DNA of 64,000 nt from contig OZ024741.1 in the NCBI GenBank assembly GCA_964016885.1, forward strand, positions 208,320,001 through 208,384,000, read 5' to 3'. The notes below the pieces were generated by a model. It saw only the letters and a program-made list of their open reading frames with translations, did no database searches and was not told the origin of the DNA. Origin of the DNA: Eledone cirrhosa. Its lineage: Eukaryota. Position numbers and translations under genes: made by a program. Below are positions 4,736-63,926 of this stretch, in pieces (position 1 is the first letter of the stretch; every line of letters starts with the position of its first letter).

Positions 4736-5431
4736 AAATATAAGTATGTATACGTACATACATATATGTATACAGACTTACAGTAGTATGTATATATATA
4801 CATACATGCACACATATATATGTGTACGTATGGATTTACCGAACATTTATTATAATGCTCGGTGTGTTTGTAAACAAACATCCCGAATTAAGCCGTACAG
4901 TGTTTAGCTACCATCGTTGCTCTTTTGTTCAACACTGACATACTACTTTACGTCTGTATACATATATGTATGTACGTATACATACTTATATTTAATTAAC
5001 AGCCGTACTAAGAGTGAGAAATGAAATTTCATTTCATTTTTTCCATTGATCGTTTTCGGTGCGCCCAGCCGATTAACTCACTCGATATGCAAATTAGGCT
5101 GCTCAGCCGTTAATATGCATAAGGAAAGTATATACTTTCAGACGTTCAATCATCTGGCAGGAAGGTATACGGTGCTGACGATAGCTAATAAGATTGAAAC
5201 TAGTACATCGTTCCTTTGTCAGTGTTGAACAAAAGGGCAACGATGGTTGCTAAACACTGTACGGCTTAATTCGGGATGTTTGTTTACAAACAAACCGAGT
5301 ATTATAATAAATGTTCGGTAAATCCATACGTACATATATATATGCATGTATGTATATATATACATACTACTGTAAGTCTGTATACATATATGTATGTACG
5401 TATACATACTTATATTTAAGTAACAGCCGTA
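4736..5431 (+). mobile_element. non-coding HHR retrozyme-like element, family A (inverted arm plus ~1.15 units of ~424 bp)
   Basis: 4736-4940 is the reverse complement of 5217-5418; 4941-5007 is repeated at 5365-5431; homologous to the 55.8-58.2 kb array unit. Confidence 0.85.
5169..5211 (+). ncRNA. minimal type-I hammerhead ribozyme
   Basis: acggtg CTGACGA tagctaataagatt GAAAC ta GTA catcgt. Confidence 0.8.
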
Positions 5432-5442
5432 TATATATATAT

Positions 5443-5603
5443 GTTATTCCCGGTTGAATAAGTAAGGTACTCAATACATAAAAGTATAAAAGTTTTAATA
5501 TAGAAGAGCTTCTACAGGACTAGAACTGTTTCATTCGTGAGAAAACATCAGCGCTTCCTGGTGATTCTTCACGAATGAATCAGTACTAGTCCTGTAGAAT
5601 CTC

Positions 5604-5608
<5 letters not shown>
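5443..5608. mobile_element. palindromic double-HHR micro-element (decayed copy)
   Basis: 5501-5608 is a near-perfect palindrome of two back-to-back HHR motifs; second copy at 32652-32838. Confidence 0.7.
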
Positions 5609-5661
<53 letters not shown>

Positions 5662-11459: not shown

Positions 11460-13718
11460 TTAAACCTTATTTAATGTTGGTCTATATTTTTGAATAAACA
11501 TATTTTCCTTATTTATTCGCATTTGTTCTGTTGTATTGTTAGCGCAAAGGTAAAATGGGAAGACTTGGAATTTGGGTGTCTTATTACTTGCGCAAATGTC
11601 TAGATGTGCACTTAGTGGTATCTGTCTCGTGGTTGGATCTCGTAATTGTTGGCGATGAACTGTCATTCTGTTTCTGAGTGTGAGTTTAGTTTGTCCTATA
11701 TAATCTTCATTGCATCCTTTACATTTAATGGCATAAATTAGATTTTTTGATGAGCAAGTGAAGTGATTTTTTACAGTAAAATTTTGTCCTGATTTAAATG
11801 TATACGTGTTGCCTTCAATGAGGTGAGTGCAGGTTCCACAATTAGAGCGACACATTTTTTGATACTTGGTTGTGGGTTTGTGGTAGGTAATTTGGCATTG
11901 GTGAGTAATGTTTTCAGTGATTTTGGTTGTCTTTTGCTTTTGATTATTTTGTGTGTTTCAAGGGCTTTTTTCATTCCTGGGTTTTGTTTTAGTAGTGGGA
12001 TGTTATTGTGAATAGTGTTGTAAGCTTCCGCATTTCTTGGGTTGTGTGTTGAGATATATGATAGAATATTGGACGTACCTTGAATTTGTTTCTGTTTCCG
12101 TAATTCATCAATGCCTATTGCTTTAGCCCTTTCTATTCCATTATTTATTAGTAATAGTGGGTACTCTCTCTCAAGTAGAATTTCCTTTAATTCTTGAAGT
12201 CTTTTATTTCGCGTTTCATAATTGGAGACAATTGTGCAAATTCTTCTTGCTAGGTTAAAAGGAATGTTCGTCTTCGTGTGCTTTGGATGGTTGGGGGTGA
12301 ATAGCAGATATTGTTTGGAATCTGTTGGTTTGTAGTGTATGTCAGTTTCGATATTTGTGTCTTTTTTTTGTGATTAAGATGTCCAGAAATGGGAGTTGAT
12401 CTTGGCTGTATTCCATTGTGAATTGGATGTGGTTATTGATGCCGTTTATTAAGTTTTTGAAATCCTTCAGTTGGTCGAGTGTGTGGGACCAAAGAATGAG
12501 GCAATCATCCAAGTAGCGTTTCCAATTCTCTGATAAATATTTGTGGAAGTTCAATCCGTATTTTGATTTGGACTGTTCATATATCTGGACTTCTAAGTAT
12601 GCCATGACTAAGTTGGCATAAGTTGGAGCGGCTTTTGTGCCCATCGCAGTCCCCGATATTTGCTTGTAAGTATTGCCATCGAAATCAAAAAAGTTGTTCT
12701 GTAGGATGAATTTTAATCCCTCGGTGATGAAGCTTTTTTCTATTCTGTCAGGTATCTCATTGGGATATTTCTCTAGCCAGAATCCTATTGCTTCTAGTCC
12801 GTATTGGTGTGGGATCGTTGTGTAGAGATTCACTACATCGAAAGACACAATAATAGTGTCGTTGTTGACATGTTTGGGGAGGTGGTTTAAGAGGTCCAGA
12901 TCGTCTCTTACAAGGCTTGGTATGTGTTTCAGTATTGGTTTCAGTAGTATGTCTATAAAGTTGCTCAATCTGTGTGTTTCACATTGTGGGCCCGCTACAA
13001 TTGGTCTTAATTTAAGGTCTGTGGGGTAGTGTGTGTTCACGCAGGCTGAGGTGGATTGTTTACAGGCATCGTTGATTATTTTACATTTGTGGATCTTCGG
13101 AAGTCCGTAAAGGTTGCTGGTTTTGTATTCAAAATTTGTTAAATAATCGCGTTCCTTTTTAGTTAGGTCTTCCTGGTATCGATAAATCAGTGTGTTTAAT
13201 TTGGTCATTATTTTTGATTGCTGGTAGTTTTTTACTCTTTCATAGTAATTAGCATTTTGTAAGAGAGAGAACATAGAATTTTTATATTTTTCAGCCTCCA
13301 TAATGACAACAGTACTTCCCTTGTCCGCTTCCTTAATTACAATGTCCGGATTGTTTTTTAGTTCATGGATAATCTCCCATTCCCTTCGACTTGTGTTGGG
13401 TTTGGGTTTAGGTTGCGGTAGTTCATTGTATGGGAAGGTAGCTATGTGGTCACAAAATTTGTCCAGAACTCTGTTTCTACCTTTTGTTGGGTTGTAGCTG
13501 CTTTTATTCCGTACAATTGATTCGTCGTTATTCTCCTTGTCAAAGAATTCCTCTGTGAGACGTAATTTTCTACAGAAGTGTGAGATATCGTCATTTATCT
13601 CGTTGGGGTTAGGATATTGTGGTGTTGGTGTGAATTTCAGACCTTTGGAGAGAATTTTTACTTGTTGGGCTGAGAGGTTTGTATTTGAAATGTTAATTAT
13701 TTTCGGTTTTTCACACAC
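11460..13718 (-). pseudogene. Neptune PLE RT + GIY-YIG polyprotein (5'-truncated, frameshifts near 12361 and 11852)
   Basis: LSKGLKFTPTP, ADKG, LYGLPKIHK, RPIVAG, SFDVVNLYTTIP, GTAMGTKAAPTYANL, RYLDD; C-terminal CxxC and NLIYAIKC..YIGQT. Confidence 0.93.
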
Positions 13719-13780
13719 TCGACCAACTGAAGGATTTCAAAAACTTAATAAACGGCATCAATAACCACACCCAATTCACA

Positions 13781-14737
13781 ATGGAATACAGCCAAGATCA
13801 ACTCCCATTTCTGGACATCTTAATCACAAAAAAAGACACAAATATCGAAACTGACATACACTACAAACCAACAGATTTCAAACAATATCTGCTATTCACC
13901 TCCAACCATCCAAAGCACACGAAGACGAACATTCCTTTTAACCTAGCAAGAAGAATTTGCACAATTGTCTCCAATTATGAAACGCGAAATAAAAGACTTC
14001 AAGAATTAAAGGAAATTCTACTTGAGAGAGAGTACCCACTATTACTAATAAATAATGGAATAGAAAGGGCTAAAGCAATAGGCATTGATGAATTACGGAA
14101 ACAGAAACAAATTCAAGGTACGTCCAATATTCTATCATATATCTCAACACACAACCCAAGAAATGCGGAAGCTTACAACACTATTCACAATAACATCCCA
14201 CTACTAAAACAAAACCCAAGAATGAAAAAAGCCCTTGAAACACACAAAATAATCAAAAGCAAAAGACAACCAAAATCACTGAAAACATTACTCACCAATG
14301 CCAAATTACCTACCACAAACCCACAACCAAGTATCAAAAAATGTGGTCGCTCTAATTGTGGAACCTGCACTCACCTCATTGAAGGCAACACGTATACATT
14401 TAAATCAGGACAAAATTTTACTGTAAAAAATCACTTCACTTGCTCATCAAAAAATCTAATATATGCCATTAAATGTAAAGGATGCAATGAAGATTATATA
14501 GGACAAACTAAACTCACACTCAGAAACAGAATGACAGTTCATCGCCAACAATTACGAGATCCAACCACGAGACAGATACCACTAAGTGCACATCTAGACA
14601 TTTGCGCAAGTAATAAGACACCCAAATTCCAAGTCTTCCCATTTTACCTTTGCGCTAACAATACAACAGAACAAATGCGAATAAATAAGGAAAATATGTT
14701 TATTCAAAAATATAGACCAACATTAAATAAGGTTTAA
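13781..14737 (+). CDS. uninterrupted C-terminal part (thumb + GIY-YIG) of the same Neptune polyprotein in the inverted arm
   Basis: 318-aa ORF LPFLDILI...HP...CGRSNCGTC...YIGQTKLTLRNRMTVH. Confidence 0.85.
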   Translation: MEYSQDQLPFLDILITKKDTNIETDIHYKPTDFKQYLLFTSNHPKHTKTNIPFNLARRICTIVSNYETRNKRLQELKEILLEREYPLLLINNGIERAKAIGIDELRKQKQIQGTSNILSYISTHNPRNAEAYNTIHNNIPLLKQNPRMKKALETHKIIKSKRQPKSLKTLLTNAKLPTTNPQPSIKKCGRSNCGTCTHLIEGNTYTFKSGQNFTVKNHFTCSSKNLIYAIKCKGCNEDYIGQTKLTLRNRMTVHRQQLRDPTTRQIPLSAHLDICASNKTPKFQVFPFYLCANNTTEQMRINKENMFIQKYRPTLNKV

Positions 14738-17669: not shown

Positions 17670-19781
17670 CTATCCGTTAGGGTATAGCGTGGGGCTGTAA
17701 TACAGGAAAGTTTTGTGCAATTTATGTTTACAAGCCGAAATTGCCTCAGATTTTTTGTTTAAGATGTGGTCTGTGGCGTAGAGTATTTCCAGGGCCTCAG
17801 CGGCGCAGAGGTCACATGGTCTTTTATTTCCGTTATACGACCTAGCCCTAGCTAGGATCTCCCAGTGTAACTTATATGTGGTGTGGTTGTCTTTTAGACT
17901 CCAGATATAAGCTGAAAGTGACGTCATATTCCTTTTTAGAGGGTAACGAAAAGAATGGGTATGCATGTAAAGACGCTGCTTGAAACTATTGGCGGTTAAC
18001 CTTCTGTAGTCCCTACGGGACGTGGGTGTTACAACTTTACATTTGTAGACAATGTTACTAGAGAGGCATTTCCCGGATAGGGGGAAATCAGCCCGATTCC
18101 TACAATTACAGTTAGTACTAACTACAGGGTTGCACGTGTTCCTACGGCTCTAATTTGAAGCTGTGATGTTATGTGCAAGGTTAGGAGTCGTAGAGTAAGA
18201 AATTTTAATAGTATTTCTATTAAAAATGTTACTATATTTATGTGTAGGGGGAAAATGCTTCGTAATAAGGGAAAGAAAGATCTTAGCTAATGGTCTGGCC
18301 ACCTCCATATTATATGGTGGGTTAAACCAACAAATGCGACGGGATCTATTTCTTCTAGGTCTATTTTCGTACTCTGTATATGCTACCTTATCGACAAATC
18401 CACTTCGAGCAAGAGCTTCATTGTAATAAGTGGAATGGTCGTTGAAAATGCGCTCGTTGGTGGAAAGACGGGAAAGCCTCAACGAAACGTTTTTTACCAG
18501 GTTCTTGGTTATGCTGGCAGGATGGTTGGAATGCTTACTTATGTAATTAAGCGTATCATTCGGCTTTCTATACGGGTAATACAACCCATTCAATAAATTG
18601 AGGGTAACGTCGAGGTAATTAACGACCGAGAGATTGGCCTCAACCTGTATAGAGAGGTTGAAGCCTTTAAAGAAGGCTGTGAGTTCTTTTCTGAACCTGT
18701 CGCAAGCACGAGGTCCGCACTTAGTCATGGTCAAAAGACCATCGTCACGGTACAAACCACCGCCCGCGTTGGGGAATTCGTCCTTGATAGAGAAAAGAAG
18801 GAAAAGGCCAATAAGATCAGTAACCTCCGCAGAGTCACTGGCGCCCATACTCACGTCGAATGGAGTACTATTGGATTTTTTAATCCAAATAGAGTCGTCG
18901 AAATTAATCACCGACTTTCGGGCATTAAGGATGACATCAACTTCGAAATCCTTAACCACTGTGAGTGTTTTAGCGAAATTGATAGCTCTAAGGAGAAGTG
19001 GTAAAGTGATGGAGGAGTAGTAATTGTTGATATCGAATTGGATAAAACGGCAATGTTCCTTGTTACGTATGCCGTTGAACCAATCAATCACCGCGAAAGA
19101 ATTGTTCCACAGTGCGAGAGGGGCCAAACTTCTAATTTCAGGTATAATTGTATCAAGAATCGTTTTACTAAGTCTACCTAAATCGGACTTCGTAGGGTTA
19201 ATAAGCCGAATAGAGGGGTTGTTCGGAAAATTGGATTTATGATCCTTCAGGGTAAAGTGGGGAGAAATAGGGTCCAGATGTTCGGTCCGGTCCAAGATGT
19301 TGAGATCAGATGTGATTTTAAACCCAGCGTCGTTGATTTCATTGATGACGCACCGATTAGTTTTACGGTAATCCTTAGTTACAGCATTATGTAGTAGTTG
19401 ATGGTAATTACTGCGTTCCACTTGATATAGGTTGCCAGTTTTGTCGGAATGGACGTGCACGGCGTTAGAATCCTTAATAGAACGAATTCTATTCTTCAGA
19501 TCTTGCTGGAAGGAATTGCTCCTATTCCGAAATTTGATACTCCGAATGAGTTCCAAGACATCATTTTCGAAGGGTAGCAATGTTGGGTTCCACGGGGGGT
19601 TATTATAGGTTTTAAATCCAAATTTATCCTGTTTGTTGTCTGCTTTTCGCTTATTATCGAAATAAAAGGCACGCCAACGTAACCTTTTAATGAACGCGTC
19701 TGTTTTCTGTATCAGGAGTTTTAGGTATGTTTTCCTGCTTGGTACGGGTATGTTCTTTGTAGAAATATTCAAATGTTGTTT
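17670..19781 (-). pseudogene. Naiad RT-GIY-YIG polyprotein with one in-frame TAG at 18150
   Basis: STKNIPVP..KRLRWRAF, DKT, TLKDHK, QFDINNYY, MGASDSAEVTDL, LYRDDGL; ORF 17670-17966 is in the same frame (CNCR..CL..VYKC, CDLC). Confidence 0.92.
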
Positions 19782-19940
19782 CTGAATGATGAATACAAGT
19801 CAGTAGAGTGCTCAACCGAGGGAGCCAAATAGTAATAATAATAACATTGAAGACTAAAATCCAAAGAGGGCTCGATAAGGATAAATATATATCAAATATA
19901 TAAGAACCGTAGAGTAAATATTTATTAAATAACAGATTAA

Positions 19941-32651: not shown

Positions 32652-32833
32652 AAGTTATTCCGGGTTGAATCGGAGGTAACCACAGTAAGTAACGTACTCA
32701 ATACATCGCAGAGTATAAAAGTTTTAATATAGAAGAGCTTCTACAGAACTAGAACTGTTTCATTCCTGTGAAATCATCAGGAAGCTTCTGATGATTTCTT
32801 ACAAATAAAACAGTTCTAGTCCTGTAGAAGCTC

Positions 32834-32838
<5 letters not shown>
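32652..32838. mobile_element. palindromic double-HHR micro-element
   Basis: 32730-32838 palindrome; minus-strand HHR 32737-32785: gcttc CTGATGA t-ttc-acag-gaa-t GAAAC ag-ttctagtt-ct GTA gaagc. Confidence 0.8.
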
Positions 32839-32891
<53 letters not shown>

Positions 32892-52237: not shown

Positions 52238-52800
52238 ACTCATTCTAGTGAAGTGATATGGTTTAAAAGAAGCTGTTTCCATAATTGCGAATATTATTAA
52301 TATTCGAAAAACTCAGATTACATTTATTGTATTCAGCCGTGTAAGCGATAACTTTTTTCATTTATGTGAATATGGCAAAGCCGGCCATTAATCACTCATA
52401 TACAGGAAACTGACTGGCCAGTCCGATGATATGCAAATCTGGCTGATCAGTGGATCTGCTAATATGCAGATCTGGCTGATCAGCCAGTCTGCTAATATGC
52501 AAATCAGGCCGGTCATTCACTGCATATTTTCGAAAATATATATTTTCACTAGCTCTGACAGTTGGCAGGTGAAGAGTGAATTGTACTGATGAAGGGTATT
52601 CACCCAGAAACATTAGTGTCTGAAGTTCTGTTTACATGCCAACACAAGAGCAAGAATGAGGGACTCATTCTACTGACATTGGCTTTAAAAATGAGGCTTG
52701 TTTTCATAAATACAAACGAATCCAATGTTATTATAATATTCGAAAAACTCTTATTACATTTATTGTATTCAGCCATGTAGAGTGATAACTTTTTTATTTA
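52234..52800 (+). mobile_element. retrozyme-like element (~426-bp unit, 1.3 copies) with triplicated octamer module
   Basis: 52234-52365 matches 52660-52800; 33-bp repeats with ATGCA(A/G)AT at 52431, 52464, 52497; HHR. Confidence 0.8.
52578..52628 (+). ncRNA. type-I hammerhead ribozyme
   Basis: gaattgta CTGATGA a-gggt-attc-accc-a GAAAC at-ta-gt GTC tgaagttc. Confidence 0.8.
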
Positions 52801-52806
52801 TACATA

Positions 52807-52884
<78 letters not shown>

Positions 52885-54239
52885 TAGAAGTGGTATTTAA
52901 TTTGTTGGAAGTCCAACAAATATAAATGTTTATAACTGATTTAGAGTACTCAACAGTTTCCTGGAGTAAATATTCAATGATATTAAATAAATGGAAACTA
53001 TATTTATAAAACCATATTTATTTTATTATATATATTTCTAGGGCAACCAAGACAACATTGGTACGCTTTCATCAGATAAAATACAAAATTTGTTTTATAA
53101 ATAGAGACATACCCATGAAAATCATACATTATCGGTTGGAAATTCACTGGATAGTGGAAATATATTAGGGATTATTCAAACTTATATGTGAATATGCAAA
53201 TGAATATGTAAATAATTGAAAAACAACCGTTTATTTAAATGACACTGGAGAAAGAGAGAGAGAAAAGAGAGAGTGAGAGAGATAGAGAGAAGAAATTAAC
53301 AATAGGATGTATAAAACTCATATAACGTTAATTTGGGGGAATATATTCTAAATATATATCTAATGGTACGTGTATTTACGATTAATTAGTTGTTAAAATT
53401 CTTTTCTAATATAATATTTATTGTTATAAGTAGATAGAAAAATAAATAGATAGAAGAATAAATAGATAGAAGAATAGATAGAAAAATAAATAAATAAATA
53501 AATAAAAAGATAAATGGATAAATAGATAAATAAATGAATAGATGGGTATATCGTGTTATAGATAATTGTTTTAATGAGTTATGAGGGATATTGGTTTTGT
53601 ATTTAATGGAAGTAAATATTAAGTTAAATTAAATTAAGTTAACTGAGTTAATAAGAATATTTATATATTTATATTTATATATTTTAAAATGGGAAGATAC
53701 GGAAAAACCTCCCGTTTTGTTTATTTATTCGTTAGTATGAGACTAATTTGTCAAAATAAGTATAAATGTTGAAAGATATATTTAGCCAGAATTAGTTAGT
53801 GGTTATAAATCTAATAAAAGATATTGAAAAAATATTTTAAATATTCGGGAAAATTTTTTTAAAATATAATTTATAAGAGATAAATAATAATAAAAAAAAA
53901 AAAAAGTAATTTTTAAAAATAGATAAAAAATTAAAGAAATAATTAAAAATTATTAAGATTAAAATTACAATTAAAATTTAAATTTAAATTAAAATTAAAA
54001 TAAAAAAAATTAGAATTATATATGTATATATTTTAAGAAACTTTAAGAAGTGAAATTATAGCAAATGTTATAGATATGATTTAGAGATATCAATATATTA
54101 AAACCAACTGGATAAGATTGCTATGGAAATAAGTAGAAATATTATAAGTGTAATTATAATTTATATATAGTTCTAAATGTTGAATTCAGGCAATGTCTAC
54201 AAGAACTAAATAAATTCGTCCTTATATTAATAGTCTTAC

Positions 54240-55420
54240 ATTTAAGTATAAAAAAAATGATGATATGCTGCTTTTAATTGAAAATCATAGTAATTGTTAA
54301 ATTAATAGAAAAAGAAAATCCATAATACAATTCTTCAATAGCTACAACCTTAAGTTAGAAATAGAGAATAACTATAAAATTGTTAACTTTTTAGACGTAA
54401 CATTAAACCTTAACACAGTGCTCTACTATCCATTCCATAAAACTAATGAGAATCTAAACTATGTAAGTTTTAACTCTAATCATCCTAGATCTATCAAGAA
54501 CACTATTGTTAATTCTATCCAACAACGTATTTCACGCATCTCCGTTAATAAAAACATTTTTGACGATAAGGCAGAATATTATAATGAAACTTTAAATAGA
54601 GCAGGCTATATAAATAAGATTAAATACATCGACAACAGTGGTAAGGCAAATAACCCTACTATTAATTATAATTACAATAAAAAATCTAAAGCTAACAGAA
54701 GAAATAGAATTAGAAATATTATTTGGTACTCACCCCCATTCTCGTTAAGCGTTAAAACACCTTTAGCAAAGCTATTCTTTAAAGCTCTAGATAAATGTGT
54801 TCCTTTAGGAACACATTTATCTAGAGCTTTAAAGATACCCCTCAATCTTTAACAGACATACTATAAAACTATCTTATTCTACTGCTATGAACATAACACA
54901 GAATATAAATAGAATCAATAATAGAAATTTAAACCATAACCAAAATAGCAGTAATATCTCGAGCAATATCCAACATAATAGTACCGTTCTGAATAACAAC
55001 TCCGTAAAATGTAACTGTAGAATTAAATTAAACTGTCCTTTACAAAATAAGTGTTTAGATAGGGAGGTGGTCTATAAATGTACAGTTAAAACCAATGATA
55101 ATATATTTAACTATGTAGGTGCAACTTTTACGGAATTTAAAAGTCGCTGGAATAATCACAAATGCTCTTTCCAAAGATTTGATAAAATATCTTCAACTTC
55201 TCTTTCAAACCTGATATGGAACTTAAAATGCATGAATATAGACTATTCTTTAACTTGGGAAATAGTTTCAAAACACAGCTTTATCTAGATTTTGCAAATT
55301 GTGTGTTGAGGAAATTTTTTTCATACTTAAATGTAAGAACTCTATTAATATAAGGACAAATTTATTTAGTTCTTGTAGTTATCGCCTGAATTCAACATTT
55401 AGAACTATATATAAATTATA
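54240..55420 (+). pseudogene. Naiad RT C-terminus + GIY-YIG (frameshifted)
   Basis: VNFLDVTL, YPFHK..SNHP, IWYSPPF, CNCRIKLNCPL..YVGATFTEFKSRWNNH. Confidence 0.9.
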
Positions 55421-55926
55421 ATTACACTTATAATATTTCTACTTTTTTCCATAACAATCTTATCCACTTGGTATATTGATATCTCTAAATCCTATCTATA
55501 ACATTTGCTATAATTTCACTTCTTAAAGTTTCTTAAAATATATACATATATAATTCTAATTTTTTAAATTTTAAATTTAATTTTAATTTTAATTTTCTTT
55601 TTAATTTAAATTGTAATTTTAATCTTAATAATTTTTAATTATTTCTTTAATTTTTTATCTATTTTTAAAAATTACTTCTTTTTTTTTAAATTACTTTTCT
55701 TTTTTTAAATTACATCTCTTATAAATTATTTTTTTAAAAAGTTTTCCCGAACTTTAAAATATTTTTTCAATATCTTTTATTAGATTAGTTGAAAAAAATG
55801 AAAACGAAATTTCATTTCTCACTCTTAGTATGGCACTTACTTAAATGTAAGTATGTATGTATACGTACATACATATATGTAACTGATGCGTGCATATATG
55901 TATGTGTACCTGTATGCATATGTGTA

Positions 55927-55977
<51 letters not shown>

Positions 55978-56133
55978 GCATGCTACTGTACGTCTGTATA
56001 CATATATGTATGTACGTATACATACATACTTACATTTAAGTAAGTGCCATACTAAGAGTGAGAAATGAAATTTCGTTTTCATTTTTTTCAACTTATCGTT
56101 TTCGGTATGCCTGACCGATTTAACTCACTCAAT

Positions 56134-56186
56134 ATGCAAATTAGGCTGCTCAGCCGTTAATTTTCATAAGGAAAGTATATACTTTC
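56134..56186 (+). promoter_or_regulatory. octamer + inverted octamer-like site + TATA-centred palindrome (repeated in every unit)
   Basis: ATGCAAAT-ta-ggctgctcagcc-gttaATTTTCAT-aag-GAAAGTATATACTTTC; promoter role is inferred. Confidence 0.5.
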
Positions 56187-56215
56187 GAACGTTCAACTAT
56201 CTGGCAGATGGGTAA

Positions 56216-56258
56216 ACGGTGCTGATGATAGCTAACAAGCTTGAAACTAGTACATCGT
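56216..56258 (+). ncRNA. minimal type-I hammerhead ribozyme (unit 1)
   Basis: acggtg CTGATGA t-agct-aaca-agct-t GAAAC ta GTA catcgt; stem III palindrome ACTAGT. Confidence 0.88.
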
Positions 56259-56436
56259 TCCTGTGTCAGTGTTGAACAAAAAGGTGACGTGGTTGCCTTA
56301 ACACCGTATGGCATAAATTCAGGCTGTTCGCTTTGTTGACAAACAAACGAACAAAGCGGCCGGCGTTATAATAAACGTCGGCTAAACTGATGCGTGCATA
56401 TATGTATGTGTACCTGTATGCATATGTGTATATATG

Positions 56437-56478
<42 letters not shown>

Positions 56479-56721
56479 TATATGCATGCTACTGTACGTC
56501 TGTATACATATATGTATGTACGTATACATACATACTTACATTTAAGTAAGTGCCATACTAAGAGTGAGAAATGAAATTTCGTTTTCATTTTTTTCAACTT
56601 ATCGTTTTCGGTATGCCTGACCGATTTAACTCACTCAATATGCAAATTAGGCTGCTCAGCCGTTAATTTTCATAAGGAAAGTATATACTTTCGAACGTTC
56701 AACTATCTGGCAGATGGGTAA

Positions 56722-56764
56722 ACGGTGCTGATGATAGCTAACAAGCTTGAAACTAGTACATCGT
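56722..56764 (+). ncRNA. minimal type-I hammerhead ribozyme (unit 2)
   Basis: Identical to 56216-56258. Confidence 0.88.
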
Positions 56765-56936
56765 TCCTGTGTCAGTGTTGAACAAAAAGGTGACGTGGTT
56801 GCCTTAACACCGTATGGCATAAATTCAGGCTGTTCGCTTTGTTGACAAACAAACGAACAAAGCGGCCGGCGTTATAATAAACGTCGGCTAAACTGATGCG
56901 TGCATATATGTATGTGTACCTGTATGCATATGTGTA

Positions 56937-57008
<72 letters not shown>

Positions 57009-57243
57009 TGCTACTGTACGTCTGTATACATATATGTATGTACGTATACATACATACTTACATTTAAGTAAGTGCCATACTAAGAGTGAGAAATGAAATT
57101 TCGTTTTCATTTTTTTCATCTTATCGTTTTCGGTATGCCTGACCGATTTAACTCACTCAATATGCAAATTAGGCTGCTCAGCCGTTAATTTTCATAAGGA
57201 AAGTATATACTTTCGAACGTTCAACTATCTGGCAGATGGGTAA

Positions 57244-57286
57244 ACGGTGCTGATGATAGCTAACAAGCTTGAAACTAGTACATCGT
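57244..57286 (+). ncRNA. minimal type-I hammerhead ribozyme (unit 3)
   Basis: Identical to 56216-56258. Confidence 0.88.
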
Positions 57287-57458
57287 TCCTGTGTCAGTGT
57301 TGAACAAAAAGGTGACGTGGTTGCCTTAACACCGTATGGCATAAATTCAGGCTGTTCGCTTTGTTGACAAACAAACGAACAAAGCGGCCGGCGTTATAAT
57401 AAACGTCGGCTAAACTGATGCGTGCATATATGTATGTGTACCTGTATGCATATGTGTA

Positions 57459-57528
<70 letters not shown>

Positions 57529-57763
57529 TGCTACTGTACGTCTGTATACATATATGTATGTACGTATACATACATACTTACATTTAAGTAAGTGCCATAC
57601 TAAGAGTGAGAAATGAAATTTCGTTTTCATTTTTTTCAACTTATCGTTTTCGGTATGCCTGACCGATTTAACTCACTCAATATGCAAATTAGGCTGCTCA
57701 GCCGTTAATTTTCATAAGGAAAGTATATACTTTCGAACGTTCAACTATCTGGCAGATGGGTAA

Positions 57764-57806
57764 ACGGTGCTGATGATAGCTAACAAGCTTGAAACTAGTA
57801 CATCGT
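57764..57806 (+). ncRNA. minimal type-I hammerhead ribozyme (unit 4)
   Basis: Identical to 56216-56258. Confidence 0.88.
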
Positions 57807-57978
57807 TCCTGTGTCAGTGTTGAACAAAAAGGTGACGTGGTTGCCTTAACACCGTATGGCATAAATTCAGGCTGTTCGCTTTGTTGACAAACAAACGAAC
57901 AAAGCGGCCGGCGTTATAATAAACGTCGGCTAAACTGATGCGTGCATATATGTATGTGTACCTGTATGCATATGTGTA

Positions 57979-58028
<50 letters not shown>

Positions 58029-58086
58029 TGCATGCTACTGTACGTCTGTATACATATATGTATGTGTACCTGTATGCATATGTGTA

Positions 58087-58136
<50 letters not shown>

Positions 58137-58930
58137 TGCATGCTACTGTACGTCTGTATACATATATGTATGTACGTATACATACATACTTACATTTTAT
58201 TAGATTTATAACCACTAAATAATTCTGGCTAAATATATATTTCAACGTATATACTTATTTTCTCAAAATAGTCTCATACTAACGAATAAATAAACAAAAC
58301 TGGAGGTTTTTCCGTATCTTCCCATTTTAAAATATATAAATATAAATATATAAATATTCTTATTAACTCAGTTAACTTAATTTAATTTAACTTAATATTT
58401 ACTTCCATTAAATACAAAACCATTATCCCTCATCACTCATTAAAACAATTATCTATAACACGATATACCCATCTATTCATTTATTTATCTATTTATCCAT
58501 TTATTTATTTATTTATTTATTTATTTTTCTATCTATTCTTCTATCTATTTATTCTTCTATCTATTTATTTTTCTATCTACTTATAACAGTAAATATTATA
58601 TTAGAAAAGGATTTTAACAACTAATTAATCGTAAATACACGTACCATTAGATATATATTTAGAATATATTCCCCCAAATTAACGTTATATGAGTTTTATT
58701 CATACTATTGTTAATTTCTTCTCTCTATCACTCTCGTAATATTTATTTTTTCTCTCTCTTTCTTCAGTGCCATTTAAATAAACGGTTGTTTTTCAATTAT
58801 TTACATATTCATTTGCATATTCACACATAAGTTTGAATAATCCCTAATATATTTCCACTATCCAGTGAATTTCCAACCGATAACGTATGATTTTCATGGG
58901 TATGTTTCTATTTATAAAACAAAATTTGTA

Positions 58931-58991
58931 TTTTATCTGATGAAAGCGTACCAATGTTGTCTTCGTTGCCCTTGAAATGTATATAATAAAA
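58931..58991 (+). ncRNA. type-I hammerhead ribozyme of a Naiad pLTR (inverse copy 53021-53081)
   Basis: ttttat CTGATGA aagcgtacc...gttgccctt GAAA tgtata TA ataaaa. Confidence 0.75.
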
Positions 58992-59032
58992 TAAATATGG
59001 TTTTATAAATATAGTTTCCATTTATTTAATAT

Positions 59033-59081
<49 letters not shown>

Positions 59082-63120: not shown

Positions 63121-63127
<7 letters not shown>

Positions 63128-63837
63128 CAAATAAAAACAAATAACGAAACGAAATTAAATTTCGTTTCGTTTGTAACTCACTTTTGTATGACTGACGACC
63201 AGTATGACTCTAAAAACCGGTTTGTCTGTGTGTTTACATACAGAATAGCTGAACACTCACAGTAAAGTGTCCAGTGAAAAACTCGGTACATCTACATATG
63301 TACACGTGTGTGTATTCATATGCATACTAGTATTTCAGTATACATATGTGGATGTACATTTTTAACTTAATTGTTTAAGCGTCAGTCATACAAAAGTGAG
63401 TTACAAACGAAACGAAATTTAATTTCGTTTCGTTATTTGTTTTTATCGTCTCCGCTGAACCGGTACGTAGTCACGCTCTATGCAAATTAGTCTGCCCACT
63501 ACTAATTTTCATAGAAAAAGCATATAACGATATGTGCTTTTACGATTCTCTAGAAAGGCTGGAGGATAGGTAAATATTGCTGATGAGATGTAACAACATC
63601 GAAACTAGTCCAATATTCCTGTCTGGCTTTCTGGAGAATAGAGGAAAGGTGTTTCCTCGAAAACCAGTATGACTCTAAAAACCGGTTTGTCTGTGTGTTT
63701 ACATACAGAATAGCTGAACACTCACAGTAAAGTGTCCAGTGAAAAACTCGGTACATCTACATATGTACACGTGTGTGTATTCATATGCATACTAGTATTT
63801 CAGTATACATATGTGGATGTACATTTTTAACTTAATT

Positions 63838-63841
<4 letters not shown>
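63121..63841 (+). mobile_element. retrozyme-like element (465-bp unit, ~1.4 copies, ~67-bp inverted arm)
   Basis: 63198-63376 matches 63663-63841; 63131-63197 is the inverse of 63380-63446; octamer at 63480; inside (TA)n. Confidence 0.88.
63573..63617 (+). ncRNA. minimal type-I hammerhead ribozyme
   Basis: aatattg CTGATGA gatgt-aaca-acatc GAAAC ta GTC caatatt; fully canonical. Confidence 0.92.

Positions 63842-63926
<85 letters not shown>

Follow-up and report, generated by a model that had tools for sequence, protein, structure and literature searches.

Fixed start sites at both ends of a hammerhead retrozyme array in Eledone cirrhosa point to insertion by a Penelope-like element enzyme

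Metazoan non-LTR retrozymes are described as dispersed, multicopy and non-coding tandem repeats of low G+C content, with units that carry type I hammerhead ribozymes and insertions that are flanked by duplications of more than 4 bp (PMC7229834; bioRxiv 10.64898/2026.07.22.740005). Until now, the movement of animal retrozymes has been a hypothesis built on shared ribozymes, co-occurrence and phylogeny. Penelope-like elements (PLEs) were named as a strong candidate for their mobilisation (Cervera and de la Pena, 2020; PMC7229834), and an origin of retrozymes from PLE termini was argued by phylogeny in later work that called the mechanism open (Li, Clavereau and Pollet, 2026; bioRxiv 10.64898/2026.07.22.740005). 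In the accessible sections of this published work, the case is made from co-occurrence and phylogeny, without two fixed ends, an outward inversion or a rule by which one end (A) pairs with the other (B). We found no published end analysis of this kind in a search of mainly the open literature; supplements may hold junction data.

PLE insertions are known to be inverted head to head, with a tail at one end (PMC8557442, PMC3846280). According to the available text of PMC11167929, purified PLE protein cuts and extends both target strands, and the protein of the anole Poseidon element starts at two positions inside the RNA, which delimit the tail seen in the genome. Non-coding cargo has a precedent in the non-autonomous Chlamys elements such as MRC1, which are multicopy, head-to-tail and ascribed to PLE machinery (PMC8557442). 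In contrast to the retrozymes described here, these elements resemble the 3' ends of their partners and, in the text available to us, most are without hammerheads.

In the window (the whole 64-kb stretch of DNA that was analysed), we found a hammerhead array bounded by two plus-strand copies of the 12-mer TTTTATTAGATT, at 55775..55786 and 58195..58206. The same 12-mer is present once on the minus strand, at 53808..53819 in the sister arm of the inverted element that hosts the array, and there is no other copy in the window. From left to right, the array consists of an inverted short arm of 95 bp (55787..55881, minus strand; monomer positions 253-347), four complete units of 504, 506, 522 and 520 nt (55881..57932, plus strand) and a partial fifth unit (57933..58197, plus strand) with a 108-nt internal duplication that the initial annotation had overlooked. 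The units start at 55881, 56385, 56891, 57413 and 57933, and the hammerhead cores begin at 56222, 56728, 57250 and 57770, with spacings of 506, 522 and 520 nt. The 407-nt part of the unit outside TA is the same in all four units except for one base in unit 3, which amounts to one variant base in about 1,600, and there is no higher-order pattern. Each unit also has two TA runs, and their lengths vary aperiodically from unit to unit in every unit. The initial annotation had already described these near-identical units, the inverted piece in front of them, the flanking 12-mer and the single uninterrupted copy in the sister arm, and our coordinates and unit comparison agree with it. Among the listed open reading frames of at least 150 aa, none lies over the array.

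When we removed the array in silico, the flanks aligned ungapped to the sister arm and restored its uninterrupted sequence, so that the sister arm represents the empty site. Six of the 28 host loci outside the window cover this site; five of these paralogues carry the full 12-mer once and the sixth carries a variant. Because the first three nucleotides of the right 12-mer, all T, also belong to the unit sequence, the duplication is 9-12 nt long. These data support insertion in a single event, with a duplicated target site and an empty site. The array units are near-identical while the arms of the host differ from each other by 4.0%, and the array is therefore by far the younger of the two. Tandem units that are almost identical and contain TA runs pose difficulties for assembly, and in a read check of the left junction the contigs from four runs were too fragmented to span it; however, the rejoining of the flanks, the differences between units in TA length and one base, and the agreement of both junctions to the base with the family rule described below make it very improbable that the unit number or the junctions are an assembly artefact.

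The host, which the initial annotation had taken for an inverted Naiad, is a decayed and outward-pointing inverted PLE in (TA)n (52881..59037). Its left arm extends 94 nt past the end of its right arm, the copy is 5'-truncated, and remnants of its reverse transcriptase and endonuclease lie at 54301-55288. We rejected the Naiad identity since a Naiad has an N-terminal endonuclease, whereas here the endonuclease frame follows the reverse transcriptase frame; this C-terminal position and a CxCX5C linker place the host in the Hydra clade. Naiads also target (TA)n. Pfam gave no detection of the Hydra frames, and the DKT motif is visible in a related young Hydra family instead of in this truncated copy. 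By eye, we also noted a hammerhead-like motif with a long helix II at 58937-58990, about 50 nt upstream of host end A.

Each complete unit of the array contains a type I hammerhead on the plus strand (56210..56262 in unit 1, with a predicted cut after 56252; 56716..56768 in unit 2; 57238..57290 in unit 3; 57758..57810 in unit 4). In unit 1, helix III is a single pair closed by a palindromic CUAG loop, helix II consists of four pairs over a U-U at its base, and helix I is made of six and three pairs around an internal loop. The axolotl retrozyme is alike in its weak helix III, palindromic loop and U-U in helix II, as far as its published description is available to us. In contrast, the minimal hammerhead of PLEs has a helix II of 7-8 bp, a short helix I and an ill-defined loop 1 (PMC4209133). 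The locus motif is without such a long helix II, and the earlier reading of a minimal hammerhead in each unit does not stand; the motif is of the canonical type I with a one-pair helix III, and we predict from its sequence that it cleaves. At the gathering score, Rfam makes no ribozyme call, and its best match is HH9 (18.5 bits, E 0.17). Matches to a loose hammerhead pattern number 10 in the window, compared to 0.23 in shuffles. Across nine natural variants, which were taken from the window and fetched loci and chosen by a hammerhead pattern that itself asks for pairing and so leans the covariation in favour, 11 of 17 ribozyme pairs have two-sided changes and the covariation score of the helices is higher than in any of 500 shuffles or of the slid controls. 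The palindromic loop of helix III varies among these variants (CUAG, CAUG, CGCG). In folding models, helix III within one copy would cost about 5 kcal/mol and the palindromes of two copies would pair at –4.8 kcal/mol; likewise, pairing of palindromes between copies is favoured over a weak helix III in the dimer-acting amphibian hammerheads, as the text of PMC7229834 available to us describes them.

Upstream of the ribozyme, unit 2 contains a start site A in the loop of a small hairpin, a tail of about 60 nt and a start site B after a longer hairpin (together 56539..56602, plus strand), followed by the octamer ATGCAAAT (56640..56647, plus strand), a candidate internal promoter element 88 nt upstream of the ribozyme core. 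The octamer is retained in divergent hammerhead-repeat families. Newt satellite 2 has an snRNA-type promoter that contains an octamer. The window holds further repeats of this kind. A divergent sister hammerhead repeat with a unit of about 465 nt lies in (TA)n at 63122-63845 in a layout like that of the array; its long arm ends in a small hairpin, its inverted arm holds little beyond the tail, and its octamer is 100 nt upstream of the ribozyme. At 52422-52632, three 33-nt repeats that each have the octamer precede a decayed hammerhead that belongs to a different family. At 4740-5430, there is an older copy of the array's family, which is 85% identical, has inverted arms that point outward and ends close to site A on both sides. 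Short inverted hammerhead stubs are present in (TA)n at 32700-32870 and 5460-5610; in these, helix II starts with a U-U and the tail is one-sided.

To place the locus within its family, we counted an exact ribozyme 36-mer, which has 10,391 copies in the 3.0 Gb genome (reversed control, 0), and a marker of the locus's subfamily, which has 573. The family is young and large. Monomers are about 440-580 nt long (119 monomers; 460-570 nt as the unit size for comparison with published retrozymes), with an internal TA hairpin and with G or C in 158 of 414 non-TA columns. They are longer than the 170-400 nt given for metazoan retrozymes in the available text of PMC7229834, and fall inside the 51-972 nt given in that of bioRxiv 10.64898/2026.07.22.740005. 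With non-coding tandem type I hammerhead units of low G+C, dispersed copies and duplications of more than 4 bp (12 nt here and at three other loci), the locus agrees with non-LTR retrozymes in the features open to test, and we class it as a member of them. The family may reach beyond E. cirrhosa, as a contig of 335 nt that is labelled as another organism (run X4) continues into unit sequence.

We then scored the ends of insertions in the window, in 19 stretches at best hits and in 51 stretches over the first 100 listed hits, by position, on one contig (C1). These contain 74 insertions with 123 arms, three of which run off, leaving 120 scored outer 3' ends; the monomer was numbered from the predicted cut. 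We found that 106 of the 120 ends lie at site A (positions 283-293; 47 ends) or site B (344-351; 59 ends), compared to 4.5 expected if ends were uniform, with site windows that were drawn after the data were seen and five ends that were placed by eye, two of which changed class. The other 14 ends are in the TA run (8) or elsewhere (6). Sites A and B are about 60 nt apart within the unit and away from the ribozyme cut. Inversions are outward in 47 insertions and inward in none; a further 26 insertions run in one orientation throughout, and the remaining one is tripartite. In insertions with both ends at sites, A pairs with B in 30 of 32 (p 1e-7), and (TA)n adjoins 100 of the 106 ends. When only the stretches taken in position order are counted, 73 of 84 ends are at the sites and A is paired with B in 20 of 20. 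In a replicate of 20 further loci scored with a motif caller, all nine loci with opposed ends pair A with B; of the others, seven had one end called, three had none and one had two on one strand. The locus under study follows the same rule; its short arm ends at B and its long arm at A (288-291). The initial annotation had proposed scoring the genomic copies for inversions, target-site duplications and circular permutation. We found outward inversions and some readable duplications, and the copies are not freely permuted at their 3' ends, most of which are at A or B.

The same arrangement is seen in two Hydra-clade PLE families of this genome. In the host family, two end sites lie 94 nt apart in (TA)n and are paired in 11 of 11 two-armed copies (28 other loci). 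In a young Hydra family with 712-713-aa frames, a DKT motif, a C-terminal endonuclease, a CxCX5C linker and (TA)n targets, the ends are 88 nt apart and 6 of 6 inverted copies pair both (16 loci). Both families have the C-terminal endonuclease, linker and targets that the accessible text of PMC8557442 gives for Hydra-clade PLEs, together with the two-end rule. In both the retrozyme and the host, site A falls in the loop of a small hairpin; in the window's sister repeat, it lies at such a hairpin. A member of the young family lies at 17670-19799; its 150 scored copies have 97-100% protein identity, and some have open frames of 713 aa. At 11460-14737, the window also contains an inverted PLE with a CxxxxCxxC linker and near-identical arms, which we take to be Neptune-type.

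Published PLE insertions resemble those of the retrozyme in their head-to-head inversion, one-end tail and AT-rich targets (PMC3846280, PMC8557442, PMC11167929) and, in PMC11167929, in internal start sites that lie in a stem-loop region and are unrelated to the ribozyme cut. In the portions of these papers available to us, they differ in a tail of 30-40 nt and a duplication of 8-10 bp, as compared to about 60 nt and 12 nt in the retrozyme, whose cargo codes for no protein and is multimeric in either arm and whose one-end tail we could quantify as a near-strict rule. Retrozyme junctions bear a PLE-specific mark that is tied to a biochemical step and points away from LINE enzymes, and we conclude that the retrozyme is very probably mobilised by PLE machinery. 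The initial annotation had offered this locus as unusually direct evidence for a PLE; the PLE case is supported, but its strength comes from the family-wide end pattern, which makes it much stronger than it would be from this locus alone. A partner in the Hydra clade is favoured by abundance, youth and target, and we regard it as likely, if less firmly so than PLE machinery as such. In contrast to the retrozyme, the Hydra-clade PLEs of this genome are protein-coding and their tails (94 and 88 nt) have no evident match to the retrozyme tail. Inspected by eye, three Hydra-type families showed no sequence match between their ends and the tail or ends of the retrozyme, and the terminal repeat of the young family no canonical hammerhead.

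To identify how the two arms arise, we considered the outer ends and the central joints. At its outer end, each new strand is complementary to the RNA, which implies that both 3' overhangs served as primers. At this locus, the top-strand primer ends in ATT, which is favoured in vitro, and the bottom-strand primer does not. We rejected a single priming event with 5' inversion, because both ends are primed and at different fixed sites. Fold-back, in which the inverted arm would come from self-priming at a palindrome and not from the second target strand, has been proposed for PLE inversions (PMC3846280, in its available part), and two insertions do invert at an internal palindrome with 6 (L042) and 16 (L056) common bases. 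However, the central joints have mostly 1-4 common bases or a short unassigned gap, near mirror symmetry is found at only 6 of the 47 centres, against 2.9 expected, and the outer ends differ by rule, A with B, unlike those of a mirror copy. The rarity of mirror symmetry argues against fold-back, which we consider quite improbable. The inverted piece is better read as a second first-strand copy made from the second fixed start site.

The stagger of the cut is readable at few loci. Among 15 informative pairs, a clean 12-nt duplication with an interruption near the junction is present at this locus, L056 and L070, and most of the others allow 11-18 nt of plain TA; 2 of the 15 show no duplication. 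Interrupted duplications occur in 6 of the 15 pairs as compared to 7 of 210 shuffled, and three of the six are left when two that use element bases and one in a periodic repeat are set aside. In a hunt for non-TA targets over 20 loci, L180 also gave a readable 12-nt duplication, and the remaining loci were mostly TA targets or unit variants. Across 44 scorable inversions, duplication lengths are not above those of shuffled flanks and are uninformative because (TA)n targets are unreadable. The locus under study is a rare non-microsatellite target with a readable duplication, and it reveals, with an empty site, a cut geometry of about 12 nt that is hidden in microsatellite insertions.

We next asked what RNA was copied. 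The ribozyme cut is crossed by 82 of 106 arms, and 0 of 123 arms start there. Arms that appeared to start at the cut were an artefact of the monomer query, and their true starts are 4-19 nt upstream. Genome-wide, 15 starts lie at the cut compared to 12 and 23 at two control positions (double mutants included). Without an excess of starts at the cut, a cut linear RNA is not the usual template. The two arms of one insertion share a haplotype and have on average 1.4 differences, compared to 17 between loci (subfamilies included). Seven loci (L038, L041, L043, L053, L056, L199 and L215) have variants that are unique to one of 45 loci and fixed in all units of both arms, as would be expected if a single monomer circle was copied repeatedly; the 45 loci sample the subfamily only in part, and uniform parents outside the sample are possible. 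At L048 (contig C1, 125822800-125832799), two haplotypes alternate in both arms over at least 11 units, making it a candidate product of a dimer circle. The same two haplotypes occur at L047 in the order X-Y-Y. L047 and L031 mix haplotypes, which is beyond what a monomer circle can give. The counts for RNA editing do not differ significantly (fixed A>G 5 and T>C 1; private variants 13 to 13; p 0.10).

The same two-strand PLE priming could also have used an uncleaved linear read-through of an older array, with the ribozyme as a passenger or active in another step. Such a template likewise predicts no starts at the cut, and the mixed arms of L047 and L031 require multimeric templates. In the available text of PMC11167929, PLE ribozyme mutants insert normally in vitro and the main substrate is uncleaved RNA, and in that of bioRxiv 10.64898/2026.07.22.740005, 8 of 9 retrozyme dimers stay uncleaved. 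In addition, four B arms stop at the position of site A, as would follow from twin priming on one molecule of either shape. Of 40 B arms, five start at site A (p 0.002), but three of 39 A arms do likewise, so that this signal is weak. In contrast, locus-specific variants that are fixed in up to 16 units of both arms need a bottleneck of one monomer, the two arms of L048, in which two unit types alternate strictly, are as expected of a dimer circle, and the ribozyme helices and palindromic loop covary across families. Weighing these data, we regard linear read-through as rather unlikely, and a circular template, given PLE machinery, as moderately favoured. The locus under study has a single variant base and TA lengths without periodicity, and is compatible with both templates. 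Of the single target-primed event with a PLE-type inversion that the initial annotation had put forward, what stands is one insertion, PLE machinery and a template that is either circular or an uncleaved multimer; single priming does not.

A different order of events would have PLE machinery insert a short inverted copy whose long arm grew later by unequal crossing-over or slippage. Taken alone, the locus is compatible with such DNA-level expansion: it has a 108-nt duplication and TA-length variation, and at least one sister array shows expansion of this type, with a four-unit block of L043 duplicated in one arm only and carrying variants missing from the other arm. Local tandem amplification is also suggested in the accessible text of bioRxiv 10.64898/2026.07.22.740005. 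However, L034, L038, L041, L048 and L100 have multiple units of one haplotype in both arms and would need two independent expansions, and the one-base difference among the units of the locus stands against the 4.0% between the host arms. We therefore consider later growth improbable as the source of the array. More generally, multi-unit blocks are duplicated within one arm at L043 and L206, apparently at the DNA level after insertion or in assembly.

Taken together, these data suggest that a PLE enzyme, probably of the Hydra clade, wrote the array in one event from a probably circular RNA on both cut strands, a reading that we hold with reasonable confidence. In the mechanism that we propose, a tandem array would be transcribed, adjacent hammerheads would pair through their palindromic loops and cut, and the monomer would be ligated into a circle. 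The PLE endonuclease would then cut an AT-rich target with a stagger of about 12 nt, leaving two 3' overhangs. Priming would take place from one overhang at internal site A and from the other at site B, and both reverse transcriptases would travel round the template, here for 4.3 rounds starting at A and for 95 nt starting at B. The two cDNA ends would join, mostly over 1-4 common bases, and gaps would be filled. That every inverted insertion arises in this way, with two PLE reverse transcriptases that start from 12-nt overhangs, are obliged to use A and B and roll round the same circle, is a bolder proposal to which we give slightly less than an even chance.

The A-with-B rule is relevant to how PLE inversions and one-sided tails form. 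If the bolder proposal is true, the tandem arrays of retrozymes, the inversions of PLEs and their one-sided tail would be explained by one mechanism. It would also mean that a 500-nt RNA with two hairpin start sites and a candidate promoter is a ready trans substrate for Hydra enzymes, and the young intact Hydra frames together with this defined RNA make an in vitro test straightforward.
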